A stretch of DNA of 64,000 nt from a virus: the IMG/VR virus record IMGVR_UViG_3300008117_000088, positions 32,031 to 96,030 of that record; one strand, given 5' to 3'. Shown in pieces: positions 11,363 to 59,326 of this stretch; within the stretch, counting starts at the first letter, position 1, and each line of letters begins with the position of its first letter. The position numbers and the translations under genes are program-made. The notes under the pieces are model-generated. The model was not told the DNA's origin and made no database searches. It was given only the letters and a program-made list of their open reading frames with translations.

Positions 11363-12411
11363 TACTCAATCTCCTCAATTAACTCTCCGGCTCTGGTGAA
11401 AGATCCGATTTTGGTGGTTATGGTGTCCACTTGCTTATTTGGCAACCTATATTCTACCGAAACTGTCAGTACTAGGTCACTTAATCCTTGGTTAGGTTCT
11501 TTTTCAATTTCAACTCTAATGAGCTTTAGTTCAGGCAAAAACTCTCCAAAAGAAGAAGTGATGGTCTGTTGTACAAAATCAATGACCGAGCCTTCCGGTT
11601 CAAACAATGCGTCGGTCGCAATGCTGCCGTAGTTTGGTCTCATTGGTCTTTCCCCAAATCGAGTAAAGATTGCTCCAAATACCCGGTCTGCCCACTGTTT
11701 AGACTCTAGGTTGTTTGTGTTGATGGCACCTGAGGCATTGAAAGAAAAAGGAAGCGATATATCTCCGCCTTCAAACATAGCCCAAGCCGGGGTGTTTGGT
11801 CTCGGTTTATATTTACCAATTAAGCTTACAGTAGCAATAATGCCAGGCGTAGCGGGACCTACCCCTGCGGCATCAGAACTTATAAACGTATTGGTGTTGC
11901 TTGCGGATGCAACAAATTGAATGTAATCCCCGGCGTCTAAATCTAAAATAAGAGCTACGGTCATTGTAATTTCAGAATTGTTTCCAGCTAATGTAATTTT
12001 AGTATTGCTATCAGGAATATCTACACCATTTTTTCTAAACCAAATATTAGCTGTCCCAGAGTTAGCGTTTGTTTTAGTAAGCATAGAAGAAAACTGAACA
12101 AAATAATCTCCAGTTTCTTCCACATATATTTTATCCCCATCTAAATACGTTTTATTTGCGTCTCCCTCAACCCAACTAGTGTTGATTAAGGTAGGGGTAT
12201 TAACCCCAATAGCCTGATCTCCTGTTGTGTAAAAAGTTCCATAAGGGTAGTTAATTTGGTTGATTGCACCACCTACAGGCCAGGCCCATTCGGTCACGGC
12301 TTCGCCAAGCACTTGAGGTATGTAAAGTTTTGCTCTACCTAGGTCTAACGGATCGTCTGCGTCCGCTATTACCCCACGATAGATACCATAAAAACGATTA
12401 TCAGAGGACAT
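11362..12411 (-). CDS. gp5/VgrG OB-fold spike protein with inserted C1q-like domain, fused in frame to a gp25-like wedge protein
   Basis: FYGIYRGVI..DPLDLGRAKLYIP..WAWP and WAMFEGGD (gp5 OB fold); ISLPFSF..TRFGERPMRPNYGS (gp25/GPW). Confidence 0.8.
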   Translation of the reverse strand: MSSDNRFYGIYRGVIADADDPLDLGRAKLYIPQVLGEAVTEWAWPVGGAINQINYPYGTFYTTGDQAIGVNTPTLINTSWVEGDANKTYLDGDKIYVEETGDYFVQFSSMLTKTNANSGTANIWFRKNGVDIPDSNTKITLAGNNSEITMTVALILDLDAGDYIQFVASASNTNTFISSDAAGVGPATPGIIATVSLIGKYKPRPNTPAWAMFEGGDISLPFSFNASGAINTNNLESKQWADRVFGAIFTRFGERPMRPNYGSIATDALFEPEGSVIDFVQQTITSSFGEFLPELKLIRVEIEKEPNQGLSDLVLTVSVEYRLPNKQVDTITTKIGSFTRAGELIEEIE

Positions 12412-13666
12412 TTATCCATCTTTGTGCAATTATTGTTTTATTAGCAACCTTAGGTTTAGACCTATTTGTTATGTTACCAAAACCTGTTTGAGACTTAACA
12501 CCAGGATTTTTTGTACCCTTTTTTAATTTACTCTTTGGTTTTTTATTAGTTTGACGAACTCCCTTTTTAATATTTCTTTTTGCTTTGGCTGAAGGTACTT
12601 CTACAAGTCTGTTGTCTTTACCCTGAGTTGCAGTGCCAAGTGAGTCCGTTCCCACAGTTAGGGTTGTTGTGTAAATATAGGAGTTATAAGAATTAGAAAC
12701 AATTTTATGTTTTGCTTTTAGTACTACCCAAAAACCAGAATAAGTATTACCTAATCCGTCAAAGAAAGCCGGCATACCTGGGTATACAGTGGAGTCCCCA
12801 AGAACTTCTGCTTTTGCTCTATAAGGAAATCTAGTTCTTTGGTCTACTGCCTTAGATTCATTGTCAGCCACAGAGTAATCGTTAGCGACTACTCCTGAAG
12901 CAAACCGATCGAAGAACTCAGGCTCAGCCTTTTTTCTTGTTGCCTTTGGTCGTTTTTGATTTGTAAGTTTAATTATTTTTCCAGTAAAAGCATCAACGCC
13001 AGATACGGCAGTTGCTGATTTGTATTCTCCGTCCTCAAACTCAAGGCTTTCTCCAACTAAAGGCTCAAAAGAATAAAGGGTTGATCCCTCAGGTCTAGCT
13101 GCGTCTCGCAAAGTAAAGGTAGGAGCGTTGTCTCTAAACTCTTCATACAATTTAGTCATTGAGTGAAAATAGATTTGAGTATTTGTTACTCTTAAAAAAT
13201 AACCAGATTGTTTTGCTAACTTAACCATGGTCTCCATATCGGTAAGACCGGCTTGAGAAAATTGAGGGTAAACGCGAGGGTGTGCGTCTACGTCGTAAGC
13301 AAAGTTATTTCTTTTAGCAATTGCAGTAACTATGTCTGACGCTGTTTGCTCTACGTACACTTGTTGAGAAGTTTTTTTAAGGAAGTAAGACGCGCCAATA
13401 ACGTGTACTTCAACAAAACGTTTACCGGGCGTAACGTGAGGTTCAATGTGGTGCACGTAACAACTAAGCTCTTGTGTTCCATTTTGTCCGGCAAGGGTTA
13501 TTAAAACAGGTGTGCCGGGGCGAATATCATCGTAATCAACGTCCCAGTCTCTAAATTGAATTGTCCCAAAGTCATGCTTGTATCTTTCCTGCCAAAAGGT
13601 CATAGAATGAACTCGAGCAGGCGGTACCTTTGCATTAGGAAAATCAACACCAACAAAGTTATACAT
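12401..13666 (-). CDS. baseplate hub protein (P2 gpD / VgrG gp27-like)
   Basis: TASDIVTAIAK, QAGLTD, GFWVVLKAKH; position between LysM and gp5 genes. Confidence 0.8.
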   Translation of the reverse strand: MYNFVGVDFPNAKVPPARVHSMTFWQERYKHDFGTIQFRDWDVDYDDIRPGTPVLITLAGQNGTQELSCYVHHIEPHVTPGKRFVEVHVIGASYFLKKTSQQVYVEQTASDIVTAIAKRNNFAYDVDAHPRVYPQFSQAGLTDMETMVKLAKQSGYFLRVTNTQIYFHSMTKLYEEFRDNAPTFTLRDAARPEGSTLYSFEPLVGESLEFEDGEYKSATAVSGVDAFTGKIIKLTNQKRPKATRKKAEPEFFDRFASGVVANDYSVADNESKAVDQRTRFPYRAKAEVLGDSTVYPGMPAFFDGLGNTYSGFWVVLKAKHKIVSNSYNSYIYTTTLTVGTDSLGTATQGKDNRLVEVPSAKAKRNIKKGVRQTNKKPKSKLKKGTKNPGVKSQTGFGNITNRSKPKVANKTIIAQRWINVL

Positions 13667-24501: not shown

Positions 24502-24630
24502 TTATTCTTCGTTTGGTGCCACCATATCATATCCGATTACTTCTCCTGTATCGGCATTCTTGACTTCAAATTTCTCAAAGCCTGAAGCATCTTTTCCAAG
24601 GCTTGTTTTAATTACATTAATAGATGTCAT
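24502..24630 (-). CDS. 42-aa hypothetical protein (possible fibre partner)
   Basis: Read by hand MTSINVIKTSLGKDASGFEKFEVKNADTGEVIGYDMVAPNEE; ATGA overlap. Confidence 0.55.
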   Translation of the reverse strand: MTSINVIKTSLGKDASGFEKFEVKNADTGEVIGYDMVAPNEE

Positions 24631-26351
24631 ATGAACCTCGCCCAATATCCGTTAGATGTGTTGTTAAGTGGTGTGGCTGAAGAGGGTAGATCTGACTGAC
24701 TGTCTAAGTAGCCACGCATGACTGGTGATAGTGCGTTTAAAACCGCTGGTGGGTAACCAAAGGCAAGGTAGCCGGTACCAGGGGTTGTAGCAATAACAAG
24801 GATTGCAAAGCCGTAGCGTTGTCCAGCCTGGAACGTTACAGAAGAACTTAGATTTCTTGTGTAAACAGTGTTACGTGTTCCAAAAATAGTAATGTCGTTT
24901 GCTGTGCTTGCCAACAGTGTGGCTGTAGTCTCATCAAAAGAGTAAACACCCATCTTAATAAGGGTAGCGCCAGTAGTTGCTGTACCAGCAGATGCCACCG
25001 ATACAGTTGATGCGGTATGGGTGTGAAGCGGGCTAAAGAAGCTCCAGTAAACAGTTCCGCTAGTAAACGAGGCAGAACGGTTGTCATAACGAGGGGCTAC
25101 ATCGATGTATGTATCAGACAACTCCATACGAGCCTGCACTCGATTAATAAGAGCTATCTCTCCAGAAGCATTTGGCAACGTAAGTGTACGGTCTGCAGTT
25201 GGGTCTGTTACTTGAAGGGTAGTCTCAAACGCATCTGCGGTTGCTCCTTCAAAAACAATTGAAGATCCAACAGTAAGACCACTAAAGGTTGGGGTTGTAA
25301 TAGTTCCACCTAAAGAAACCGTGTCAGTTCCAATAGTTATAGAGGAGTTCGCTAACTTAACGTTAGTCACATTTCCATCAACTATTTTTGCTGTAGTAAC
25401 AGTGTTGTCGGTTGGGGTACGGGTGTCGGAGAGTCGAGTATCTGTTCCATAAACAACTTCTGTTGCTGAAGCGTTTCCAGTAGCGGGAATGTCTTTTGTA
25501 GATGACGTTCCAAGACCAGTAACTTGAGTGTTTGCAATTGACAATAATGTTTGATCAATACCAATAACTGCAGCAATATTTGTTCCAGTATTTGTTATAG
25601 GACCTGTTACAGATACAACTCCTGTAGCCCCAGTAGGGCCAGTAGGACCGGTTACTGTTGAGTCAGCTCCCGTAGGACCGGTTGGACCAGTAGGTCCTGT
25701 GGGACCAGTAGGACCAGTTACATTAGAGTCTGCGCCTGTTGGACCGGTTGGTCCTGTGGGCCCTGTTGCTCCAACAATTTGACCAGCGCTGTACCAAGTT
25801 GTTCCATCCCAAACGTACACATCTCCATCTGCATCAACAATATACGCATCGTTAATGTCATTTCCTGTTGACGGAAGATCAACAACGTTAGCAACACTAC
25901 CTATTAAAGTAATAGGAACACCTTGAGGACCTTGTGGTCCAGTAGGTCCAGTAGGTCCGGTTGGTCCAGTTACTGTTGAATCTGCGCCGGTTGGTCCAGT
26001 TGAACCCGTAGGACCCGTTGGTCCAGTTGGACCAGTTGGTCCAGTTGGACCCGTTACACCTTGAGGAATTCCAAAATTATAAATTGCCGATGAAGCTGTT
26101 CCAGTATTAGTTACTGTTGCTGATGCTCCAGGACCTAATGTTGTTACTGCACCAATAGTGGCTGTAGAACTTGGACCAGTAGGACCAGTTACACCTGAAG
26201 AGTATTGAAGACCAGACCACGGAGTTGTACCTGTGCCAACTTTAAATCTACCAGTATCAAATTCATAACCAACTTCACCTTGTGAAAGTGTTGGGTTATT
26301 AGTTGTCCAGTTAGCTGCGGTGTCACGTCTGAATTGAATCTTTACAGCCAT
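24627..26351 (-). CDS. collagen-like (GPT)n fibre with Mtd_N/hyaluronidase-type N-terminal domain
   Basis: IQFRRDTAANW..LSQGEVGYEFDTGRFKVG; two GPT tracts; FEGATADAFETTL..DRTLTLP fibre motif. Confidence 0.85.
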   Translation of the reverse strand: MAVKIQFRRDTAANWTTNNPTLSQGEVGYEFDTGRFKVGTGTTPWSGLQYSSGVTGPTGPSSTATIGAVTTLGPGASATVTNTGTASSAIYNFGIPQGVTGPTGPTGPTGPTGPTGSTGPTGADSTVTGPTGPTGPTGPQGPQGVPITLIGSVANVVDLPSTGNDINDAYIVDADGDVYVWDGTTWYSAGQIVGATGPTGPTGPTGADSNVTGPTGPTGPTGPTGPTGADSTVTGPTGPTGATGVVSVTGPITNTGTNIAAVIGIDQTLLSIANTQVTGLGTSSTKDIPATGNASATEVVYGTDTRLSDTRTPTDNTVTTAKIVDGNVTNVKLANSSITIGTDTVSLGGTITTPTFSGLTVGSSIVFEGATADAFETTLQVTDPTADRTLTLPNASGEIALINRVQARMELSDTYIDVAPRYDNRSASFTSGTVYWSFFSPLHTHTASTVSVASAGTATTGATLIKMGVYSFDETTATLLASTANDITIFGTRNTVYTRNLSSSVTFQAGQRYGFAILVIATTPGTGYLAFGYPPAVLNALSPVMRGYLDSQSDLPSSATPLNNTSNGYWARFI

Positions 26352-37108: not shown

Positions 37109-38616
<1,508 letters not shown>

Positions 38617-38617
<1 letters not shown>

Positions 38618-44870: not shown

Positions 44871-46451
44871 CTATCTGCCATAAAATGGGGATGAGGACAT
44901 TTCTACTTGGGGCATGGTTAAATCCATAGTTAAGGCACAGGCAATGGCTAGGCTATCTGCATAATCATCATGGGCATGGGCTTCTTCTGGGGCATGTGCC
45001 AAAAAGTTAGGACCTTGAAACTTTGTCTCTAAGTCCGTCATTTGTTGGTAAAAACGCTTCCAAGATCTAAGACGTCTTGTCTTAGCGTGGGCTGGCCAAC
45101 CAACCATTCGCCTATCAATTAACGCCTTTAAGTGTTTCCAACGTTTAGATTGTTCTTGCTGGCTACTGCCAACTGAATGAACTTCTGCTCTTGGTAATAG
45201 TAGTTTTAAACGTTGAGCAACAGCATCTCCGACACCATTTGCGTCAACTCCAACTGCTAGTACATCGTAGTTAGATAAAAAGTTAACTATTTGAAAATAC
45301 TGGTCTTCCCAATCGTCTCCTTGGATTTCTAACCAGTTTAAGACTCTGTGGTCGAAGTATCCGAATTCGTCCGGCCTGTCCCAGTCGACCCATACCACCG
45401 TGACGACCGTTGAGTCCATCTTCCGTGCCGGGTCAACTCCCACCACCACAGGCGTTCTGTGCCAAGCTTTAACAACTTCTTGCGAAGTGTCTCCCAATTC
45501 ATCCATGACTTGGGATGTGACGAACATACCTCTCTCCAACAACCACTTACAGTTGTAAGACATTTGAAATTCATCTGAGTCTTCGCCAATCCTAAGCATT
45601 TCACGTTTAATGAATTTGCCGTAATTAAGGTTTACTTTAGAGACTTCTTTCCAGTCCCACTCAAAATGGTTTTGTTTTGCTCCGCGACTAGTCTGACGTC
45701 TCTTGTTCAATTGTATGCTTTTATAAAAGTTATTTTTGCTTGTAGTAGGGGTGCCGGTCTTAACCATTGTTCCTGAGTAGTATGCCAACATAGGGGAAAT
45801 AGATTTTGAAACCACAAAGTCATCAGCCTCTTGGCACTCATCAATAACTACAAGGTGGAAAGACTTAGACTCAATCTTTGCCCTAGGGTTTGCAGTCATC
45901 ATGGTTAGACTTGACCCAGAGTTCTTTAAGCGTATTTGTCGTGTTACACCTGGAACTTTACCAAGGCTGTCATCAATTTCTGGATCACCAAGAATCTCTA
46001 TTGCACGCTCACTAGTAAGACGATTTACTGATCTACCAAATAGAGTTTCAACCTGACCTTCAACTGGAGCAAACATTCCTATCCAAATTCCATCTTTAAA
46101 CTTACCAAGAAGATCTGGGTACATACGCGCTAGTCGAGGTAGTAAAACCATTAATGTCACTACAGTATTTGCAATTGTTTCTGATTTACCTGATTGACGA
46201 GCTGCAAGCGCTGTTACTTCTTCGCCATCATTAATAAGTACGGACTCAATAATTCTTCGAGCCAAAGGTTTTTGATATGGGTGCAGGTCATGTCCGACTA
46301 ATGCCTCCATAAAGGTCATAGTCTTTTCGATAAGCTTGTCTACAAAGGCTCTCGATAACTCATCTAAACCGTCATCTTCTTCTGGCGGTAGATCGTCTTC
46401 TTCTTCCTCGACAAGGATCTCGTCTTCTTCTACAAATTCAATATCACTCAT
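44871..46451 (-). CDS. terL: terminase large subunit
   Basis: ARQSGKS Walker A, VIDECQE Walker B, TGTP, VGVDPA RNase-H-like nuclease, HDDYADS. Confidence 0.95.
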   Translation of the reverse strand: MSDIEFVEEDEILVEEEEDDLPPEEDDGLDELSRAFVDKLIEKTMTFMEALVGHDLHPYQKPLARRIIESVLINDGEEVTALAARQSGKSETIANTVVTLMVLLPRLARMYPDLLGKFKDGIWIGMFAPVEGQVETLFGRSVNRLTSERAIEILGDPEIDDSLGKVPGVTRQIRLKNSGSSLTMMTANPRAKIESKSFHLVVIDECQEADDFVVSKSISPMLAYYSGTMVKTGTPTTSKNNFYKSIQLNKRRQTSRGAKQNHFEWDWKEVSKVNLNYGKFIKREMLRIGEDSDEFQMSYNCKWLLERGMFVTSQVMDELGDTSQEVVKAWHRTPVVVGVDPARKMDSTVVTVVWVDWDRPDEFGYFDHRVLNWLEIQGDDWEDQYFQIVNFLSNYDVLAVGVDANGVGDAVAQRLKLLLPRAEVHSVGSSQQEQSKRWKHLKALIDRRMVGWPAHAKTRRLRSWKRFYQQMTDLETKFQGPNFLAHAPEEAHAHDDYADSLAIACALTMDLTMPQVEMSSSPFYGR

Positions 46452-49922: not shown

Positions 49923-50024
49923 TATTTACCTTTTCTCTAGAGTGGTATAGCGCCTGATCGGGGCGCCTTACTATTGTCCAAGAGCCTTTGGTCTTTGTCT
50001 TTGCATGCTGGTATACTTTTGAGC

Positions 50025-50765
50025 ATGAAAGTTACTACTTATGACTCTCCTCACCTTAGGATTATTGAGGATTTTGTCCCTAAGGAAGAGTGCGATTGGT
50101 TTATAGACTACGTAACAGAAAAGAATCTTTGGGCCTTCAATAACGCTAAAAGAGAGGCTTTCCCAGACGGCAGAGACTATGAGCTGGTGTCCAAGCAGTG
50201 GGATAACCGAAAGGTAGAGTTCAACAGTCTCTACAACACTAGAAGCCATCCAGAGCTTTTTAAGAGGGCTTACCCAATCATGAAGTCCGCTAAAGAACAG
50301 GTGGCTGATTTCTTTAATGTAACGCAAGACTCTTTTCAACTAGAGAGTTGGGAAGCGGTTCGTTGGTATCCGCCTTTTCATCAAGGTCCTCATATTGACT
50401 ACATAGACCCAGACTTTGATCGATCCAAACTTCCAGCAGATTTTGATTCTTCCTTCTTTACGGCAGACGAAGAGGCTTTGTACAGACGACATTGCACTAC
50501 AAAAAACTACACTGGCATGATTTACATGAATGATGACTTTGAGGGTGGGGAATTATATTTTCCTTATCACAATAACTTTGAGATTAAACCAAAGCCAGGA
50601 ATGCTTGTAATGTTTAGCGGTCACATTATGAATCCACACGGAATTAGACCAATAACAAGCGGTACTAGGTATGTTCACACCACATTCTGGTGCAAGCGTC
50701 CTCAACCAGGTTGGGAAGTTGGATATCTAGATAATTCTGGAAAACTAGACAAGTTCTGGGAATAG
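50025..50765 (+). CDS. prolyl-4-hydroxylase-like 2OG-Fe(II) oxygenase
   Basis: PHID (HxD), YMNDDFEGGEL, PHGIRPITSGTRY; start revised to ATG 50025, 7 nt after TGG-TATACT. Confidence 0.88.
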   Translation: MKVTTYDSPHLRIIEDFVPKEECDWFIDYVTEKNLWAFNNAKREAFPDGRDYELVSKQWDNRKVEFNSLYNTRSHPELFKRAYPIMKSAKEQVADFFNVTQDSFQLESWEAVRWYPPFHQGPHIDYIDPDFDRSKLPADFDSSFFTADEEALYRRHCTTKNYTGMIYMNDDFEGGELYFPYHNNFEIKPKPGMLVMFSGHIMNPHGIRPITSGTRYVHTTFWCKRPQPGWEVGYLDNSGKLDKFWE

Positions 50766-51818
50766 TTTAGATTCGGGCCATTCCCGCCACCAGTGGACGT
50801 CCCACTCATGCAAAACAGATGTGTAGTTCATCTTTTTGTTTTCTTCTGCTGATCTAAGCTCAGGAAACTTATACCCGTTCCATGTGTATGGACCAGTTTG
50901 CTCATATGGCATCTCTCCAAACAACCTCATGTTTCCCCCTACATGTCGTTGTATATAACCTGTAAACGTACTTCCTTGAGTACCTATAAAGTCTTTTGCA
51001 TGGCACATTACTAGGTTAGATATTAATCCTAAAGTTACTTCGTCTGTAAATTTTAATTCTTGAAACTCTTTAGAAAATTCTTTTTCTATGTAGTTCTCTA
51101 ATACCAATGCTCCGGTGTTTAGCACAGTTTTGCTCCACGGGTCATCTGTAGCCACCACTACTGGATACCCGGGTGTTAAGGTAGCTATGCCTTCCATAAC
51201 CTGTTCTTCAGTAGCGTAATCAAATCTATGGTCTGTTCTTCTTATATGAGCGCCTACAAAGTCTCCTAAGCTGTCAGCAATCATTTTGGCAAACTGTTGA
51301 TACTCCGGCTTAAACTTTGTTAAAGAAAGGGCTTTTTCTACCTCCGGAGTTCGGTTCATAAAAAATACAGAGTACCAACCAAGAGTCCATTTAAAACTAT
51401 AGTGATCTATAAATTCAGGCATAAACTTTCTTTTACCAGCGCAAAACTTATCTTCATTAAAAGCATTGTCAGAAAAATTATAAAAATACTGAGTAAAGAC
51501 ATTTGCTTCTATATTCAACTCTTTATCAAGGTATTCAACTTCTCCATACGGATGTACATCTATTAAATCTGTGATTCTTGGGGTTAAGTCGTTATTTACA
51601 AACTTTCTTTTGTTGTACCAACGATTTGCCGAGTAAATGCCAATACCCTTTTCAATATCAGAACTCCAAGGCTTGTTAAAGATATGATGAATTAAAAGGT
51701 CTTTTTTTAAAAAATGAGAAAGTGCTACAGCATTTTCTATACAAGTTACTTGGTTAAAAAGACCGCAAGGGTTATGCAGTTTAAATACTATCCGGTCTTT
51801 ACTAGGCTTGATATCCAC
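50745..51818 (-). CDS. O-fucosyltransferase-like GT-B glycosyltransferase
   Basis: GLFNQ, GAHIRRTD, VVATDD, DFIGTQGSTFTGYI, matching POFUT/FucT-type motifs. Confidence 0.78.
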   Translation of the reverse strand: MDIKPSKDRIVFKLHNPCGLFNQVTCIENAVALSHFLKKDLLIHHIFNKPWSSDIEKGIGIYSANRWYNKRKFVNNDLTPRITDLIDVHPYGEVEYLDKELNIEANVFTQYFYNFSDNAFNEDKFCAGKRKFMPEFIDHYSFKWTLGWYSVFFMNRTPEVEKALSLTKFKPEYQQFAKMIADSLGDFVGAHIRRTDHRFDYATEEQVMEGIATLTPGYPVVVATDDPWSKTVLNTGALVLENYIEKEFSKEFQELKFTDEVTLGLISNLVMCHAKDFIGTQGSTFTGYIQRHVGGNMRLFGEMPYEQTGPYTWNGYKFPELRSAEENKKMNYTSVLHEWDVHWWREWPESKLFPELV

Positions 51819-52744
51819 CTGTAGGTCTCCTCTAAGCCACCTCTTAAATCCTCTTTAGGAGCCTCACCTAAAATAAACTTAATAAGTTCATTGTCTGAGG
51901 TTCTAGCCCTAACGCCAGTTGGACCCTCTATGTGAACTTTAGATAAGTTTTTTCCAGCAATATCGCAAACAATATCCACCAAAGTGTTAATAGAAACAGT
52001 TTCTGTGGATCCTATGTTTATAGGGTGTAGATAATCTTTTTCTCTGTAAAACTCTTTCGTAAACTTAATGCATTCATCTATGTATAAGAATGAGCGTAGT
52101 TGCTCTCCATCCCCCCATACTTCAATAGACTCAGTTGCTTCCGCTACTTTTCTACAAATAGCTGCGGGAGCTTTTTCTTTGCCTCCACGCCAAGTTCCGT
52201 AAGGACCAAATACATTGTGGTATCTGCCAACTTTGTTTTTCATGCCATAATCTTTATTATAGGAAAGATACAAGCGCTCGCTAAATAATTTTTCCCAACC
52301 GTATTCAGTATCAGGGTTTGCGGGGTATGCTGTAAGTTCTTGGCAAGTAAAGTCATCTAGATTAAGTTGATTGTGCTCTGGGTATACGCAAGCTGATGAA
52401 GAAAAGAAAATACTTTTTATGCCTTTTTGCTCTGCTCTTTTTAAAACATTGATATTTATAAGCGCAGAGTTAGATAGTATAGAAGCGTCGTTATTAGCAC
52501 TAATGTACCCAATACCGCCCATATCAGCAGCTAGTTGATAGACCTCATCAAAAGTTTTATCAATTACTTTATCAACTTGTTCTTGAGACCTTAGATCACC
52601 AATAATAAAATCATCAGCAAAAGTGCTCCAGTGTTCTGGGTAATGAAGGTCTGCTCCTCTAACCCAAAATCCTTCTTCTTTTAAACTCTTTACTAGGTGG
52701 CTTCCAATAAATCCGCCAGCACCCATAACGAGTGCTGTCTTCAT
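51788..52744 (-). CDS. GDP-D-mannose 3',5'-epimerase (GME-type SDR)
   Basis: GAGGFIG, LAADMGG, SSACVYP (catalytic Cys), YGWEK, GKEKAPAAICRK (catalytic Lys). Confidence 0.88.
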   Translation of the reverse strand: MKTALVMGAGGFIGSHLVKSLKEEGFWVRGADLHYPEHWSTFADDFIIGDLRSQEQVDKVIDKTFDEVYQLAADMGGIGYISANNDASILSNSALININVLKRAEQKGIKSIFFSSSACVYPEHNQLNLDDFTCQELTAYPANPDTEYGWEKLFSERLYLSYNKDYGMKNKVGRYHNVFGPYGTWRGGKEKAPAAICRKVAEATESIEVWGDGEQLRSFLYIDECIKFTKEFYREKDYLHPINIGSTETVSINTLVDIVCDIAGKNLSKVHIEGPTGVRARTSDNELIKFILGEAPKEDLRGGLEETYRWISSLVKTG

Positions 52745-53325
52745 TGATTTGCTGTGGACTTAGCCCATTGAGCTTCAGACCACTCCCCAGTAACAACCTT
52801 TAAATAATCAGGTCCTTTAGTAAAGTACCAATGATCTGGCTCAGCATAATGAAAGAACACTACGCCAACAAAGTTCTTTTCTGGGTCGGGAAATGGACCA
52901 CGCCAATGCTCTTGATCGTTTCCATAATAAGCAACAGCCTCATTTGGCTCAGTAAAGTATTCAACGTCTTCTACAAAAAGACCCCAGTTAGTATCGTAGT
53001 AAACGCACATATCAATTGTGTAAGTGCAAGCATTGTTATCTTTATGCTTCCAAAGTTTTGCTCCAGCGCCTTCATATCTGCAAAACAAAGTGTAGGTATG
53101 TAGCAATGTTTCGCTGTTAAATGTCTGCCGAGCTAAAGGAACGCTTCTTTCAGCGTACTCGCTAAGGATTGGAGAGTCGTAGTGACTTAGGGCGTATCTT
53201 CCAAAGTCTGGGTGGTTTTGCACGCTGGTATCAACACGCAGCATTGTGTCCCTAAACTTAGCAAATTCCGGATCAGGAAATACATTTCTTAGTATTTGAG
53301 GGGCTGGTCTTACTATCGCATCCAT
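52741..53325 (-). CDS. 2OG-Fe(II) oxygenase
   Basis: LWKHKD (HxD), EHWR, VFFHY. Confidence 0.8.
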   Translation of the reverse strand: MDAIVRPAPQILRNVFPDPEFAKFRDTMLRVDTSVQNHPDFGRYALSHYDSPILSEYAERSVPLARQTFNSETLLHTYTLFCRYEGAGAKLWKHKDNNACTYTIDMCVYYDTNWGLFVEDVEYFTEPNEAVAYYGNDQEHWRGPFPDPEKNFVGVVFFHYAEPDHWYFTKGPDYLKVVTGEWSEAQWAKSTANQ

Positions 53326-53924
53326 TGAACCACCGCATATCTTGTACCAGAAGTTACTGGGTACACCTTGTGTGAATAAACATAGGTAGAAGGGAAGAGG
53401 AGAAGATTTCCCTTCTCAGGTTTGATTTTAATATCAAACTGATCAAACTCAATTTCGCCACCCTCATAAGCATCATTTGCGTAATACGTTAATGATACGC
53501 GACGTGGGAAGCGCCAATGATCGTCCATATGACGATCAAACTTTTGTCCAACTCCGTACTTAAGGATTTGATAGGAGTCATAACTTCTAATATCTACGCC
53601 AAAAAAGTTTAAGTACTCTGTTAGAGGGTCATGAAAAGCATCTCTAAAAGTACATCCCAAACCGTACTCCATTAAGAAACGAGAAGATGTGGTTTCTGGG
53701 TCTGGAGCAGGGGAGTCTTTAGGAGGCATAGGCGCACCTAAACTAAAAGTATCTCTAATGTACTTGTTCTCTGATCCATCGTTTTTTGCATCAGCTACCT
53801 GAGCAGATGCCCAAGTTAAAATACCAGACTCTACGGTGTACTCAAGGTCTTGCATGAGAGTTTCACCTTCTGGAAGAACGTTTTCAAATATAACGATTCC
53901 TGGAGCAACAAAATTTAATGCCAT
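53313..53924 (-). CDS. prolyl-4-hydroxylase-like 2OG-Fe(II) oxygenase
   Basis: Start revised to ATG 53924 (MALNFVAPGIV); HMDD, YEGGEI, FPSTYVYSHKV..GTRY. Confidence 0.88.
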   Translation of the reverse strand: MALNFVAPGIVIFENVLPEGETLMQDLEYTVESGILTWASAQVADAKNDGSENKYIRDTFSLGAPMPPKDSPAPDPETTSSRFLMEYGLGCTFRDAFHDPLTEYLNFFGVDIRSYDSYQILKYGVGQKFDRHMDDHWRFPRRVSLTYYANDAYEGGEIEFDQFDIKIKPEKGNLLLFPSTYVYSHKVYPVTSGTRYAVVQWMR

Positions 53925-54142
53925 TAGACAGCTCCCCATTTTCCTACCGGACATGATGCCGGTGCTAATTTTGTTTTTAGATGCATAAGGCACCCACACT
54001 TTTTGCATTGCTTTGTGAACTTAATTAAGTGCTCACAGCCAAGGCATATATCCATACGAGACTTTTTTACCTCGTCAGATACGTGCATTACATTGGGGTT
54101 AACTAAATCCCACGGCTTTACCGACCGTTGTTCCTCAGACAT
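53924..54142 (-). CDS. small Cys-rich protein (DUF6171-like)
   Basis: RMDICLGC..QCKKCGCLM..K..SCPVGKW. Confidence 0.75.
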   Translation of the reverse strand: MSEEQRSVKPWDLVNPNVMHVSDEVKKSRMDICLGCEHLIKFTKQCKKCGCLMHLKTKLAPASCPVGKWGAV

Positions 54143-54872
54143 CTGTTTCTCCTTCAGTTGTCTCTAATTTTACACTATTTTCAATCCTGTACTTTTTACG
54201 CTCCCAAAGATTGTCTCTATAGAAGTCGCTTTTTACAGACCTAAATTTAATCGCTCTTTTGAGGTTTCTTCCAATTTGAGCCTCGTTACCGTAGATAGGG
54301 GTGGCGTTCCAGTCTTCTCTTCGAAACGGCAATACCTGAACGTAAGGGGTTCCCTTAGGCACTAGACCAGAAAAGCCTTTACGAATAAAAAACGGAATCA
54401 TTCCAGGGGTATTCATTTTGTCATTGTCTATCACCCCAGAAGTGACCAGAAACGGCAAGTCAAACCTATTAAAGGGGGTAGTGTAAAGAGCGCTAAAGCC
54501 AGGCTCTAACTCAACTCCCCACTCCGGTAAGAATGAAAAATGATCTTCGTAATAGCCTTCAGGATGATGGAAGTTTGGCAACGGGTCTCTTAGCCCAATA
54601 AAGTCTTGAAAGTTAGGGTCTTCTATCTTTGCCACTATACGATTATCAGCAATATCAAACATAACATCACACGGGGTTTTAAAGATATACCCAGAAGTCA
54701 TGGCATCAAAAAATGGAACACAGTTTCTAAATGTGCTATTCCCATCCTCATGATACCTATTTGTGTCTTTGTACCAGGCCGGCAAAGATTTAGCAGCTAC
54801 CTCAGGAGGATTTCCTACATTTTCCCATCTAGCAGCAACAAAATATATATTTTTCTTATCTAGTTCCACCAC
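54135..54872 (-). CDS. DUF6065-like protein (paralogue of 26731-27417)
   Basis: PAWYK, CVPFFDAMTSGY, PFNRFDLPF, GTPYVQVLP. Confidence 0.6.
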   Translation of the reverse strand: MVELDKKNIYFVAARWENVGNPPEVAAKSLPAWYKDTNRYHEDGNSTFRNCVPFFDAMTSGYIFKTPCDVMFDIADNRIVAKIEDPNFQDFIGLRDPLPNFHHPEGYYEDHFSFLPEWGVELEPGFSALYTTPFNRFDLPFLVTSGVIDNDKMNTPGMIPFFIRKGFSGLVPKGTPYVQVLPFRREDWNATPIYGNEAQIGRNLKRAIKFRSVKSDFYRDNLWERKKYRIENSVKLETTEGETDV

Positions 54873-55408
54873 TGCACCATAGCATAACGAGTTCCTGCGG
54901 TTACCGGCTGAACCTCATGCCTGTAGGCGTAGTTAGACGGAAACACTAAAAGTTGATGCGCTTTTGGTTTAACCGCCACATCAAAGTTAGTAAATACTAT
55001 TTCTCCACCCTCGTAATCATCATTCACGTAGTACGAGTAGGAAACTCTTCTAGGTCTACGGGGAGAGTCGTCTATGTGCGGAGTAAAGAACTGACCTATC
55101 CCATACTTTAGTAGTTGCACTCCCTCTTGGGTATGGTCTAAAGATATTCGATAGTAATCACAGTACTCAGAGATTAGTGGGGAAAGGGCCGTTGTAATCT
55201 CGTTGTATAGCGAGTGAACTCTTTTTATAGGGTTAGACGCATCTTCTGGAAGCTCAAAGTTTGGAAGACCGATAAGTTGAACATCCCGGTATTTAGTGTC
55301 TACTAAAGGGCCTTTATCAGTATTTAAAGTGCCTGATCCCCAACGTAGATCGGTGGTTAATGTCTTCTCTTCTAAATCTTTAATAAACTCAGTCGATTGA
55401 GGCCACAC
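54860..55408 (-). CDS. prolyl-4-hydroxylase-like 2OG-Fe(II) oxygenase (N-terminus possibly truncated)
   Basis: PHIDD, NDDYEGGEI, FPSNYAYRHEV..GTRY. Confidence 0.85.
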   Translation of the reverse strand: MWPQSTEFIKDLEEKTLTTDLRWGSGTLNTDKGPLVDTKYRDVQLIGLPNFELPEDASNPIKRVHSLYNEITTALSPLISEYCDYYRISLDHTQEGVQLLKYGIGQFFTPHIDDSPRRPRRVSYSYYVNDDYEGGEIVFTNFDVAVKPKAHQLLVFPSNYAYRHEVQPVTAGTRYAMVQWWN

Positions 55409-56798
55409 ATCACTGTATAAATGTGAACCAAAGCGGACTCTCCGTCTGCTAGGAACAGGGTGTCTCCCGGAATAAGTGAAGCAACTGTGAAGAACTCGTA
55501 AACGCCATCTCGTAGTGCAAGGATTGGGTGGAACTCAGAGAACTTGTTAGCTACATCAGAGTTGAAGTAGGCAACCTTCTGGTGGACAGACTGAACCTTG
55601 TTTATAACCTTTGCAGTTGCATAAGATTCCATAGTCAAGGTTGAGGTGTTCCACTCGTACAAGTTCCAATCAGGTAGATTTTCATCTAGTTCTGTGAACT
55701 TAGGTACAACTAGCGTGTCGCCAATCTGAACATCACGAGATGCTACCCACGTAATAACTCCGTCTTGGAGTGTTAGTACTGGAGTATCTCCCTGTACGCA
55801 AGGGACTCCAACGCCGTAGTAAGGATCTACGTAACGTACTGGAGTTGGGGTAGGTGTAGGTGTTGGAGCCACAGGTGTAGGTGTAGGTGTAGGTGTAGGC
55901 GTTGATGTACAAGTATTAACAATGTCGTAGTCAGGGCATCCTACGTTAGTGATACAACGTAGTCGGTATCCGCTTTGACCTGCTGGACATGAAGGCTCTG
56001 TAGTTCCATAAACGCAAGTTGAGCAGTCCAAAGTTGGTGTAGGAGTTGGGGTAGGTGTTGGGGTTGGTGTAGGTGTAGGAGTTGGCGTTGGTGTAGGAGC
56101 AACAGGCGTTGGTGTAGGTGAGCAGTTTGTAGACTGGCAAGCAGGGAAATCACCAGATGTAAAGATACATTGACGTGAGTAACCAGTTCCTGACGCGTTG
56201 TCTTGGAATCCTGGAGTTGTGTAAGAACAGTTACCTACACCACCGCATTGATAGCTCTCAGTACACTTCCACTGTGCAGTCGGTGCGACTGGCGTAGGTG
56301 TTGGAGTTGGAGTTGGTGTAGGAGTAGGAGTTGGTGTAGGTGTTACAGTATTTGCAATACAGTCTCCATAGATGTTTGGACATCCTTGTGGAGTAATGCA
56401 ATATGTTCGAGTTCCAGCCGCGCCAGTGCCTGTTGTACAAGCTTCGGTTCCTGATCCGTAAGGGCAACATGATCCATCGCAAGGACCAGACGCTGTAGAA
56501 CAGCCAACTGGAGTTGGTGTAGGAGTAGGAGTTGGCGTTGGAGTTGGGGTAGGTGTTGGAGTTGGAGTTGGTGCTACAGGTGTTGGAGTTGGAGTAAATA
56601 CTGGAGTTGGAGTTGGTGTTGGTGTTGGTGCAACTGGAGTTGGAGTAGGAGTTGCACAGTACGCCATGTGTTTCCTATTTTTACGTAAGAGTTAGTGACG
56701 GTACGCCAAGTATTGCCTATCTTGACTTGACCGCAATCATTAGCTTGATCAGCTGTTACGGTACGCCAAGTGCCGTCAACTTTTACGTATAACGCCAT
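55372..56798 (-). CDS. (Pro-Thr)n/Cys-module fibre protein with C-terminal Hint domain; split by a frame break near 56655
   Basis: 56574-56798 gives three KxxxTWRTV repeats; 55372-56667 gives PT tracts, three Cys modules and Hint blocks CVQGDT and FSEFHP. Confidence 0.72.
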
Positions 56799-56801
56799 GG
56801 C

Positions 56802-56945
56802 TTACGAATATTTCAGCCAGATATCTCCGTTTTTACCAGATCCGCTTGGGGGTGTCGAGGTTGAAATAAAAATTTCTCGATCCTTGCTACCGGCAGTATC
56901 GGAGATTACTTGAGCACCAATTACTCTAATTGATTCCCTCGACAT
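56802..56945 (-). CDS. 47-aa fibre-associated protein
   Basis: Read by hand ..IFISTSTPPSGSGKNGDIWLKYS (GDIW motif). Confidence 0.65.
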   Translation of the reverse strand: MSRESIRVIGAQVISDTAGSKDREIFISTSTPPSGSGKNGDIWLKYS

Positions 56946-57280
56946 TAGGAAGCCTCATATCCGCTTACTGTCAGATTAATTGTTGAAGAAGTTCCAGCAA
57001 GAGCAAAGAGTTGATCTCCTGCTGTCATAACTTGGGCTAAATCAATAGCAAGTGTTGAGTATGCTGGAACTGGAATTAAACAAAAAATTTGATTTGAAGT
57101 GGTTGTTGTTCCTCCGTTTGGGACAAGGTGCAAGGAGAAAGTAGATGATGAGGCAGTGCAGTTAGTGGCTAGAACCTGTTTTACCACTGCGGTAATGCCT
57201 GATCCAACCGTGTATACGCTGGTTGCTGACGTACTCAATTGAGTAGGGCTCGTCATTCGCTTTAAATTATAGGCTGGCAC
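56945..57280 (-). CDS. small beta-rich virion protein
   Basis: VYTV..VVKQVLATN..MTAGDQLFA..TVSGYE. Confidence 0.7.
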   Translation of the reverse strand: MPAYNLKRMTSPTQLSTSATSVYTVGSGITAVVKQVLATNCTASSSTFSLHLVPNGGTTTTSNQIFCLIPVPAYSTLAIDLAQVMTAGDQLFALAGTSSTINLTVSGYEAS

Positions 57281-58177: not shown

Positions 58178-58684
58178 TTACTTGACCTTGATTACTTTGG
58201 GCTTTTCCTCTTCGGGAACTTCACGTTCCACCTTGATGGTCAATAGCCCGTCTTTAAGGGTAGCCTCTTTAACTTCCATCCACTCCCCAAGCACGAACCT
58301 TTGAGTCCATAGACGCTTGGCGATTCCTTGATGAAGAACCTCTTCGCCTTTGTCCTCTTCTTTTTCAACGCTTTTAACGATGAGCAGGTCTTTTTCTACA
58401 GTTACTTCAATGTCTTCTTTCTTGTACCCAGCCAGGGCGATTTCCACTGTGTAATGGTCATCATCCACTTTGATTAGGTTGTAGGGTGGAAAGGTCGTTG
58501 TCTTATATGAGGTCAACGTGTTCCAACGATTGATTTGATCTTGAAACCCTAAGAAGAATTGAGCGCTGAGTAAATCAGCAAGGGTTTGAGGTTTTACTGT
58601 AGTTGTTGGGAGTTTCGAGTATTCGTACTTATCCCATTGCTTGTGCTTATGTGGTTCCCAAGAATTTGGGTAGCCTGATGCCAT
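58178..58684 (-). CDS. small heat-shock protein Hsp20 (IbpA-like)
   Basis: FPPYNL, EIALAGY, LHQGIAKR, ATLKDGLLTI, PEEEKP; ATG 58684 after AAGGAG. Confidence 0.93.
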   Translation of the reverse strand: MASGYPNSWEPHKHKQWDKYEYSKLPTTTVKPQTLADLLSAQFFLGFQDQINRWNTLTSYKTTTFPPYNLIKVDDDHYTVEIALAGYKKEDIEVTVEKDLLIVKSVEKEEDKGEEVLHQGIAKRLWTQRFVLGEWMEVKEATLKDGLLTIKVEREVPEEEKPKVIKVK

Positions 58685-58747
58685 AATAATCACTCCTTAG
58701 ACATGATTAGTTAATGAGTCCCGGTTGGCGACTCGTGATTATTATAA

Positions 58748-59326
58748 CTATTTTTTAATTGTTTGACCGCAAGTAGGGCATGTTTCTACTTGACTGGTTG
58801 GAGCGCTGGCTGATGAGGCGCCTGCCCCTTTAAACTTAGGACGTCCAAAACCTACGATAGAGATTTGAACTCCGGCTTTGTTCTTTTTGTAGGCACGAAG
58901 TTGTTTGCAAACTTCTCCGCCATTTCGTTGGCTACCAGACTTTTTAGATGAAGTATTGCCTTCAATGCACCAAACAGTTCCGTCTTCGTTATCTTTGATA
59001 ACAATTCCTACGTGAGAAATTCTATCGACCCCATCTGCTGGGAAATCAAAATAGGCGATATCTCCTGGCTCTGGATCGGCCACATCTCCGTCAATCCATG
59101 CGCCCTTTTTCTTAAATGCTGCCGCACCGCCAGGGGTGTAAACAGTATTAGGAACTTTTACTCCGGCTTCGTTAGCGCACCACATAACGAAACTTCCGCA
59201 CCAAGGTTGGAAATTTGCTTTTGTGTAAGCGCCGTATTTAGTCTCGTTGTCTTTAGGACCTTCGATAGTTCCTATTTCACCTTTAGCAACTTCAATAAGA
59301 CGAGCTGCTGTTCCCTGTTCTGCCAT
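58748..59326 (-). CDS. CHAP-domain endolysin
   Basis: PWCGSFV (Cys), ISHVGIV (His), IEGNT. Confidence 0.88.
   Translation of the reverse strand: MAEQGTAARLIEVAKGEIGTIEGPKDNETKYGAYTKANFQPWCGSFVMWCANEAGVKVPNTVYTPGGAAAFKKKGAWIDGDVADPEPGDIAYFDFPADGVDRISHVGIVIKDNEDGTVWCIEGNTSSKKSGSQRNGGEVCKQLRAYKKNKAGVQISIVGFGRPKFKGAGASSASAPTSQVETCPTCGQTIKK

Follow-up and report, generated by a model that had tools for sequence, protein, structure and literature searches.

This report concerns a stretch of 64,000 nucleotides (the window), bases 32031-96030 of the 96,030-bp IMG/VR virus record IMGVR_UViG_3300008117_000088, which carries direct terminal repeats, and within it a block of tailoring-enzyme genes that adjoins a proline-rich fibre gene. 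The reading that we favour, at a probability of roughly 0.55, is that the block is a phage cassette that would hydroxylate and glycosylate the adjacent Pro-array appendage protein, here by means of a fucosyltransferase-type enzyme fed by a GDP-mannose 3,5-epimerase (GME). As judged from sequence comparison, the window would be one member of a widespread phage module, known mostly from lake metagenomes, which pairs a long Pro-array protein with tailoring enzymes. The original prediction, made from the window alone, had proposed a hydroxylated, L-galactosylated appendage built from one locus. The block and its open reading frames (ORFs) proved to be real, with corrections for a split gene, a truncated Hint domain and some labels. 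The enzyme identities and their co-variation with Pro arrays speak for that proposal, while its single intact fibre and its analogy to thrombospondin repeats did not stand.

The first line of evidence comes from loci centred on the glycosyltransferase (GT) of the block. By homologue alignment the GT family was found on at least 172 viral contigs, and 80 loci, chosen by the presence of the GT (33-48% identical), were fetched and their six-frame ORFs searched with the window proteins. GME is present in 78 of the 80 loci, a 194-aa oxygenase in 74, a small Cys protein in 66 and a prolyl 4-hydroxylase (P4H)-like gene in most, with a Hint domain and a 245-aa partner protein in five each. These counts define a core of Cys protein, 194-aa oxygenase, GT and GME, often joined by a P4H. 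At 80% identity the loci fall into 25 GT lineages, 23 of which are informative, having upstream DNA. In all 23 lineages the ORF directly upstream of the cassette reaches at least 28% Pro per 60-aa window (at least 30% in 22), a level found in 17 of 896 other gene-like ORFs (1.9%). Seen from the side of the proline, 35 of the 39 distinct Pro-rich ORFs are followed by an oxygenase gene no more than 2.5 kb downstream. Independent assortment of enzymes and fibre among relatives, which had been named beforehand as the outcome that would speak against the system, was not seen; both travel together and co-vary across hundreds of contigs.

The array proteins of these loci are modular. A variable N-terminus, which may be a tail-fibre-type domain (phrog_8780, E 6e-14), TWRTV repeats or PASTA, is followed by long X-Pro arrays, Cys-rich beads, and a Cys-rich tail or a Hint domain; in relatives, the N-terminal domains match the C-terminal domains of tail-fibre and minor-tail proteins. 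The arrays are of the PTPVA, PVPV, PPVA and APSPV types, with T, V, A or S before the Pro. Proline is the sole residue universal to them, the arrays of L031, L037 and L050 hold almost no Ser or Thr, and the array proteins of three GT-linked lineages (L029, L036, L045) are free of Cys. This composition favours Pro, as hydroxyproline (Hyp), rather than Thr as the putative common target, and argues against the Cys modules as an obligatory GT acceptor.

The second line of evidence comes from near-isogenic phages. The window terminase is 87% identical to those of phages whose GT is 35-38% identical, which marks the fibre region as a swapped, hypervariable slot; the fibre and enzyme region appears from these comparisons to be a recombination hot spot in otherwise near-identical genomes. 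Phages with a terminase 81-96% identical and with the slot covered were taken as the sibling set. Counted by eye and unscripted from locus listings, in loci that are not independent, oxygenases (P4H and/or the 194-aa protein) accompany 8 of 10 Pro-array fibres, the window and L013 included, and 0 of 5 fibres that stay below 20% maximum Pro per 60-aa window. Were the neighbouring fibre the substrate, co-variation in this direction would be expected.

The individual siblings illustrate the range. In L223, a fibre with FN3 domains, Cys modules, Pro arrays and Hint stands with a P4H, the 194-aa oxygenase, a relative of the 245-aa protein and a PF11397 GT. The Pro-array fibres of L243 and L260 are accompanied by a PF11397 GT (E 1e-32 and 7e-37) and a true DUF6065 protein (E 1e-56), and the Tyr-rich Pro repeats and Hint of L190 by a PF11397 GT and a relative of the 245-aa protein, with the oxygenase absent. 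In L188 (490-3076), and likewise in L192, a TWRTV-type fibre has poly-Thr/Ala linkers and no Pro array; GME is present, along with a gene whose 324-aa product has an HLRRDD motif and may by its sequence be a further fucosyltransferase-type GT, and the oxygenase is absent. Where the fibre has no arrays at all (L245, L248/L251), oxygenase, GT and GME are all absent. The PF11397 GTs occupy the slot held in the window by the fucosyltransferase-like GT and GME. We take PF11397 to be the Gnt1 family, that of the Skp1 hydroxyproline GlcNAc-transferase; a search of the sibling PF11397 GT against PDB sequences gave no match. Family GT60 also holds the polypeptide GlcNAc-transferase of Trypanosoma cruzi, which acts on mucin Thr (PMC6939170).

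A different origin of this pattern has to be considered, namely that the enzymes belong to auxiliary genes for remodelling the envelope or metabolism of the host, by way of L-Gal or fucose-type sugars placed on host glycans, or of oxygenases that act on host proteins or the 2-oxoglutarate (2OG) pool, and that they simply adjoin a hypervariable fibre gene. Cyanomyovirus genes with 50-57% identity to the window GME stand in glycan islands together with GDP-fucose genes, GTs, an annotated O-fucosyltransferase and 2OG oxygenases, and such cyanophage genes have been read as serving cell-wall modification, the oxygenase functions not being specifically investigated (PMC9602691). Host remodelling leaves unexplained, however, why the enzyme set shifts with the array type in near-isogenic phages, why oxygenases follow nearly all Pro-rich ORFs (35/39), and why members of the GT family are found almost exclusively on viral contigs, beside Pro-rich proteins, and we consider it unlikely.

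Table 1. Features of the window and of four sibling loci, with their positions and the basis of each call
Feature	Position	Strand	Basis or remark
PASTA-domain protein, 177 aa	49389-49922	-	PASTA E 3.6e-5
Convergent P4H-like oxygenase "c"	49974-50765	+	PF13640, 38.8 bits, E 1.9e-9
Fucosyltransferase-superfamily (GT-B) GT	50745-51818	-	profile, motif and AlphaFold2 (AF2) fold
GME (short-chain dehydrogenase/reductase, SDR)	51788-52744	-	Arabidopsis GME 2c59 match
2OG-Fe(II) oxygenase-fold protein, 194 aa	52741-53325	-	AF2 model and Foldseek
P4H-like 2OG-Fe(II) oxygenase "b"	53313-54008	-	PF13640, 65.1 bits, E 1.2e-17
Cys protein, 72 aa, four Cys, DUF6171-like, zinc-ribbon-like	53924-54142	-	PF19668; phrog_13558 E 7e-17
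Conserved partner protein, 245 aa	54135-54872	-	phrog_7084, E 2e-27
P4H-like 2OG-Fe(II) oxygenase "a"	54860-55408	-	PF13640, 65.6 bits, E 8e-18; 5' end clipped
PT/Cys-module/Hint ORF, 431 aa, candidate substrate	55372-56667	-	translation
Truncated Hint (bacterial intein-like) domain	~55372-55812	-	C-terminal part of the 431-aa ORF
N-terminal fibre part, three TWRTV-type repeats, 74-aa ORF	56574-56798	-	different frame from the rest
Small protein, 111 aa, before the fibre gene	56945-57280	-	49% identical to the same-position L004 gene
Hsp20-family small heat-shock homologue (phrog_432) and endolysin	58178-58693, 58748-59326	-	just upstream of the fibre slot
Pro/Thr/Ser/Glu-rich protein, 845 aa	60081-62618	-	
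Collagen-like fibres	37109-38617 and 24627-26351		
Terminase	44871-46451		
PF11397 GT, L243	1915-3572 of L243		slot of the window's GT and GME
PF11397 GT, L260	4274-5924 of L260		slot of the window's GT and GME
PF11397 GT, L190	3941-5017 of L190		slot of the window's GT and GME
PF11397 GT, L223	4485-5534 of L223		slot of the window's GT and GME

The oxygenases are the most numerous enzymes of the block. The three P4H-like genes that had been called from the window all score above the PF13640 cut-off of 27 bits and find their best solved matches among prolyl 4-hydroxylases. A family profile built from 23 homologues (A5) gave as its best PDB matches 3itq, the P4H of Bacillus anthracis, and 5hv0, at 2e-11, followed by 5c5t (P4H of PBCV-1) at E 1e-6 and then by PKHD-type hydroxylases, PHD2, LH3 and P3H1. 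H160 and D162 are invariant in the A5 alignment and H213 nearly so, and the HxD and distal His are kept in oxygenase b; the consensus GxRYAVV near the C-terminus contains an Arg, which the columns listed as invariant or nearly so do not include. The nearest characterised relatives of these genes are peptidyl-prolyl hydroxylases. Oxygenase a is 66% identical to a 212-aa L004 gene, aligned from its residue 29, and oxygenase b aligns from residue 19 of a 210-aa L004 gene, its own true start probably lying near 53954. Oxygenase c, with a probable start at 50028, shares 72% identity with a gene at L004 1781-2521, placed there between endolysin and Hsp20 homologues and not convergently after the GT.

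The 194-aa protein, earlier described as another 2OG oxygenase, has no Pfam match, and its profile found none among PDB sequences. Its AF2 model (pLDDT 93.6) shows the 2OG-oxygenase fold, with Foldseek neighbours that include a PKHD-type hydroxylase, PHD2, the Pseudomonas putida P4H, vCPH and ALKBH6. The Atlas agrees with this fold, and H94, D96 and H140 are invariant in the homologues. Among the oxygenases, it is the one most constantly linked to the GT (74 of the 80 GT loci).

Since the best solved relatives of the P4H-like enzymes are collagen-type P4Hs, with Bacillus anthracis and giant-virus precedents, the enzymes might act on the collagen-like (Gly-X-Y) tail fibres of the phage, which the GT would then decorate, and the PT protein would be a bystander. 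Collagen-like fibres are encoded in the window and in the flanks of 31 of the 80 GT loci. A collagen-like ORF lies near only 2 of 80 P4H-array loci centred on the 245-aa protein, however, and it is Pro-array ORFs that lie directly upstream of the enzymes instead. Among the siblings, the presence of oxygenases tracks the Pro content of the neighbouring fibre. We regard this alternative as very unlikely.

The sugar side of the proposed cassette consists of GME and the GT. The epimerase call, already part of the original prediction, is firm at the level of sequence: the match to Arabidopsis GME 2c59 has an E-value of 1.2e-89, against 4.7e-23 for the next SDR family, and the equivalents of Cys145, Tyr174, Lys178 and Lys217 are all identical in the HMMER alignment to 2c59 (SSSAC, YGWEK, GGKEKAP). 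In the Arabidopsis enzyme, Cys145 and Lys217 are catalytic, with Tyr174 and Lys178 the SDR residues.

The GT, predicted to be O-fucosyltransferase-like, was examined by profile, motif and fold, and all three point to the GDP-fucose transferase superfamily (GT65, GT68, GT23, GT11, GT37). Its own match to PF10250 (E 1.5e-5, 25.2 bits) falls below the 31.5 cut-off, and several homologues do carry PF10250. The family profile (A2) matches POFUT2 at E 3e-7, with HxRRxD aligned to the POFUT2 motif. This motif I (GAHIRRTDH in the window) binds the GDP-sugar, and its H191, R193 and D196 are invariant in 25 homologues. The AF2 model (pLDDT 89.5) gave listed Foldseek hits that are all FUT8, POFUT1/2, NodZ or AtFUT1, at a probability of 1.00 and with TM scores of only 0.35-0.43. 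A tblastn search of GenBank phages with the GT gave no match, and as a single-protein query against viral contigs it returned nothing, so that the homologue alignment was needed. Close relatives in cellular genomes were limited to two short contigs, probably mis-binned phage, one of them in a bin labelled "ME2012... Rohwer" that presumably stems from Lake Mendota; more distant ones (23-30% identity) occur in Acidobacteriota and other metagenome-assembled genomes. GDP-L-galactose differs from GDP-L-fucose solely in the 6-OH, and L-Gal replaces L-Fuc in plant mur1 mutants, which by analogy makes GDP-L-galactose, as first proposed, a reasonable candidate donor for the GT.

The candidate substrate is the gene whose description changed most. 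It had been read as one fibre carrying TWRTV repeats, four PT tracts, three Cys modules and a terminal Hint domain. The 431-aa ORF does contain four (Pro-Thr)n tracts that alternate with three Cys-rich modules, followed by a truncated Hint domain; the TWRTV repeats belong to a separate ORF in another frame. The ATG of the PT ORF, at 56667, is two bases out of frame with the TWRTV ORF and has AGGA five to six bases upstream. At the junction the window is 7 nt shorter than the in-frame L041, through one gap of 4 nt and another of 3 nt, which costs one frame position net. A programmed -1 frameshift was ruled out here, as a slippery heptamer is absent and the length difference from L041 has the pattern of an indel. 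In P0001-P0005, L013 and L041-L044, the TWRTV repeats and the Pro array are fused in frame as a single protein. P0001-P0005 are 57% identical to the window protein over the C-terminal part, and one metagenome scan for their contigs gave a single 1.4-kb contig.

The second lesion lies at the 3' end of the same gene. DNA alignment with L004 (5900-6050) shows about 120 nt to be absent from the window (sites 55372-55440, minus strand). This deletion removed the last ~45 residues of the Hint domain, including the terminal His-Asn, and also took ~28 codons from the beginning of the P4H gene that follows, which is left with an internal GTG as its start, in another frame. Either of the two lesions may be a real mutation or an assembly error. 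With a frameshift and a Hint truncation in the substrate gene, the local fibre copy may be split or defective, the enzymes being intact.

It is conceivable that the local module is decaying, with a fibre pseudogene and a cassette remnant that has no current substrate, which would be compatible with the tailoring cassette that we propose for the family. Two independent lesions in one fibre gene and the clipped P4H start suggest this, and neither exact fibre ORF is on record in the protein collection, whereas the neighbouring 245-aa protein is. On the other side, the eight enzyme ORFs are all intact, the PT ORF with its own ATG and AGGA could be translated independently of the TWRTV repeats, the frameshift adjoins a repeat and may be an assembly error, and the 845-aa Pro/Thr/Ser/Glu-rich secreted protein could be a substrate. 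Local decay is a doubtful explanation on this balance, though one to be taken seriously.

The Cys modules had been likened to thrombospondin type 1 repeats (TSRs), with POFUT2, whose acceptor is a folded TSR bearing a conserved C-x-x-(S/T)-C-x-x-G, as the model for their modification. A Pfam scan found no TSP_1/TSR or other Pfam domain in them, and the serine of the C-x-x-S-C module is Asp in the close homologue P0005. Together with the three Cys-free GT-linked lineages, this spoke against a TSR/POFUT2-type acceptor, and the analogy was dropped.

The terminal Hint domain, for its part, is a genuine domain of the family, and is incomplete in the window. The window copy keeps the N-terminal Cys motif PCVQGDT and the block-B motif SEFH, both conserved in the family alignments (A1, A3). 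Its C-terminal blocks F/G and the His-Asn are deleted, and relatives end in ...THNK or ...VHNK. The window copy alone had no match in Pfam or PDB, and detection needed the family profile (A3), which gives E 1.1e-6 with the bacterial intein-like (BIL) domain 2lwy and 2e-5 to 2e-3 with mini-inteins. A Hint domain is not a defining part of the fibre, as had been supposed, but an optional one, a Cys-rich tail being the usual alternative. The relatives of the window share with BIL/Hint domains and Hint-capped tail proteins a C-terminal Hint with N-terminal Cys and terminal His-Asn. A weak tblastn match was found to BN7874_136 of Phage NCTB, annotated as "tail protein, contains intein domain" and encoded beside tail-fibre genes. 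In contrast to these, the Hint of the present system follows Pro arrays, can be replaced by a Cys-rich tail, and in the window lacks its C-terminal end.

The small proteins of the block were also followed up. The predicted small Cys protein is the 72-aa phrog_13558 member, which matches PF19668 (DUF6171) at E 2e-5 and 25.2 bits, just below the cut-off of 27. The 245-aa protein had been labelled DUF6065-like, a label that is unproven: in Pfam there is no match to DUF6065 (PF19541) even at E<=10, and hhalign against the true DUF6065 of a sibling phage gave a probability of 1.2% (E 0.044). In the Atlas clusters nearest to it, 12-21% of the members have DUF6065, and it is possibly a distant relative by sequence. 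Relatives of the 245-aa protein occur on at least 426 viral contigs, nearly always within P4H arrays, and it has halovirus homologues. The membership of the 111-aa protein in the module is uncertain. It matches phrog_1276 weakly, and the order "111-aa gene, then fibre" is also found in L188, L190, L204, L245 and L248. A convergent gene of ~200 aa, conserved after the cassette in relatives, was set aside as a lysozyme (SLT_3), a positional neighbour outside the system.

The GT loci led to a second kind of array protein. Most of the "background" Pro-rich ORFs in them encode FN3-like domains and (Pro-Phe-Phe)n repeats, and are followed by P4H and 245-aa-protein genes. A scan centred on the 245-aa protein found at least 426 contigs, of which 80 loci were fetched. 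The PFF-repeat protein, which follows a tail-fibre gene, stands at the head of P4H arrays with as many as 10 paralogues (median 6), and this arrangement was found in 12 of 13 informative lineages. In the window and in L004, both enzyme sets are merged behind a single PT/Hint protein. At its C-terminus the PFF protein shares its Cys tail or Hint with the first array protein of that phage; in L015 the same Hint was seen on the X-Pro and the PFF protein, and in L065 the same tail (CTCGYCWRCSICCPG...). A C-terminal module common to both proteins suggests a shared docking or processing signal. Within long PFF-type P4H arrays, L114 has at 12138-12803 a FabG-like short-chain reductase (phrog_3142, E 1e-43).

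The genome is that of a myovirus with recognisable terminase, portal, major capsid protein, sheath and collagen-like tail fibres. The G+C content of the window is ~43%, and a megablast search of GenBank phages with the block gave no match. The cassette lies on the minus strand, upstream of the terminase and after the Hsp20 homologue and the endolysin, and all block genes save one convergent gene share that strand. An actinobacterial host is suggested by two pointers only, the capsid protein, 71% identical to that of Streptomyces phages of the BRock group, and the PASTA-domain neighbour. PASTA domains bind peptidoglycan precursors in Gram-positive bacteria, and the neighbour therefore fits such a host. 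Homologues of this 177-aa PASTA protein are present in one to three copies between cassette and terminase in most relatives. The 845-aa protein has a signal-peptide-like N-terminus, two very long Pro/Thr/Ser/Glu tracts of the PEPTPTP type, a globular centre, and a hydrophobic C-terminal stretch with RRRKP at its end, and has homologues in L043/L044 (929 aa), L200 and L221. Possibly secreted or anchored in the cell wall, it may be mucin-like and could be another substrate candidate; unlike the fibre arrays, it has no oxygenase genes downstream.

How the cassette would work can be outlined as follows, where we infer the chemistry throughout, the residue that accepts the sugar, the identity of that sugar and a place on the virion. 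During infection, prolines of the X-Pro arrays would be hydroxylated inside the cell by the P4H-like enzymes together with the 194-aa oxygenase. The epimerase would act on host GDP-mannose to give GDP-L-galactose or GDP-L-gulose, and the fucosyltransferase-like GT would move the sugar of GDP-L-Gal or GDP-L-Gul onto the arrays, most likely to Hyp or else to Thr. The product would be a stiff, protease-resistant rod, like an extensin or arabinogalactan-protein (AGP), with Cys-rich beads, and probably a virion appendage. An intact C-terminal Hint, exchangeable with a Cys-rich tail, would cleave itself off. An extended version, which we put forward only tentatively, would have tailed phages of lake bacteria run a full eukaryote-like pathway in the bacterial cytoplasm: several dedicated hydroxylases would generate Hyp arrays, O-glycosylation of the Hyp would be FucT-type (GDP-L-galactose from the phage GME) in this lineage and PF11397 Gnt1-like in sibling phages, and the thioester of the optional Hint would cleave the rod or ligate it to the virion.

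Several points weigh against a cassette that tailors its neighbouring fibre. The fibre gene of the window itself is frameshifted and truncated beside intact enzymes. Two Pro-array fibres, those of L243 and L260, have no recognisable P4H. In the lineage of the window the module lies between lysis genes and terminase, outside the tail block, and its putative virion location is deduced from domain homology and gene position in relatives. The phage also encodes collagen-like fibres, a possible P4H substrate, and the cyanophage homologues of GME, O-fucosyltransferase and 2OG oxygenase, in glycan islands read as host-surface modification, have no Pro-array neighbour in the two that were inspected. 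Additionally, the GT-centred loci were selected on the GT, and all loci perhaps derive from one broad phage lineage of lake metagenomes, in which case some of the synteny would be inherited and not selected.

Known systems offer parallels to parts of the proposed cassette. By analogy, it most likely works like the extensin/AGP, Skp1 and PBCV-1 P4H-with-repeats systems, yet is a member of none of them. PBCV-1 makes its own GDP-sugars and glycosylates its own virion proteins, and Eriksson et al. reportedly found in 1999 that its proline-repeat ORFs are hydroxylated in vitro by the viral P4H. This enzyme (vCPH, 5c5t) is virus-encoded and belongs to the same Pfam family, with a profile match at E 1e-6. 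PBCV-1 differs in being a eukaryotic giant virus whose enzyme and repeat genes form no co-varying cassette, with no GME and FucT-like pair, Cys modules or Hint cap. In plant and algal extensins and AGPs, X-Pro motifs (X = Thr, Ser, Ala, Val) form glycomodules of non-contiguous Hyp, and P4H action followed by O-glycosylation yields stiff rods. The X-Pro arrays, with PT tracts in the window, resemble these at the sequence level; extensins and AGPs, by contrast, are secretory-pathway proteins modified by GT31, GT95 and GT77 enzymes with UDP-sugars.

Among phages, actinobacteriophages are said by Freeman et al. (2023) to carry, beside their structural genes, GT genes of their own whose products glycosylate the phage's structural proteins. 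Phage-encoded GT glycosylation of such proteins is echoed in PMC11256854. The mycobacteriophage O-glycosylation differs in its GT families and in its targets, capsid and tail-tube C-termini, and involves no hydroxylases, GME or repeat arrays. Cyanomyovirus glycan islands with multi-copy 2OG oxygenases (e.g. S-SCSM1) have a GME 57% identical to that of the window, with an annotated O-FucT and PF13640 oxygenases in the same region; they differ in having no adjacent Pro-array protein in the two inspected, and are interpreted as modifying the host cell wall (PMC9602691). In the Skp1 pathway of Dictyostelium and Toxoplasma (PhyA, Gnt1 of GT60, and PgtA with an alpha-1,2-FucT domain), Pro is hydroxylated in the cytoplasm, a sugar is placed on Hyp and a GDP-fucose-type transferase acts (PMC6939170, PMC3515798). 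The likeness lies in the sibling phages that carry PF11397 transferases in the same slot. Skp1, however, has one modified Pro and not arrays, and the window has no PF11397 gene, its GT being nearer to POFUT, FUT8 and NodZ and its donor coming via GME and not from GDP-fucose synthesis. Literature searches found no published description of phage Hyp or proline-repeat tailoring.

Aquatic phage genomes in particular carry very many 2OG-Fe(II) oxygenase genes, and here each set adjoins a nameable, clonable candidate substrate. The finding is of high interest because orphan phage oxygenases gain a testable substrate, and natural controls exist among close relatives in the form of Pro arrays, poly-Thr arrays and array-free fibres. 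If the extended version is true, the fibre and enzyme set would be swapped jointly, forming a cassette for host range or stability, and protein hydroxylation of a known substrate would account for a large share of the 2OG oxygenases that are "orphans" in phages. If confirmed, the product would be the first hydroxyproline-based glycoprotein of bacteriophage make, and its pathway a bacterial-cytoplasm counterpart to the extensin/AGP and Skp1 pathways. It would also provide compact enzyme sets for making Hyp-glycosylated rods in bacteria, and would represent a new type of modified virion appendage, with possible effects on adsorption, protease resistance and host range.

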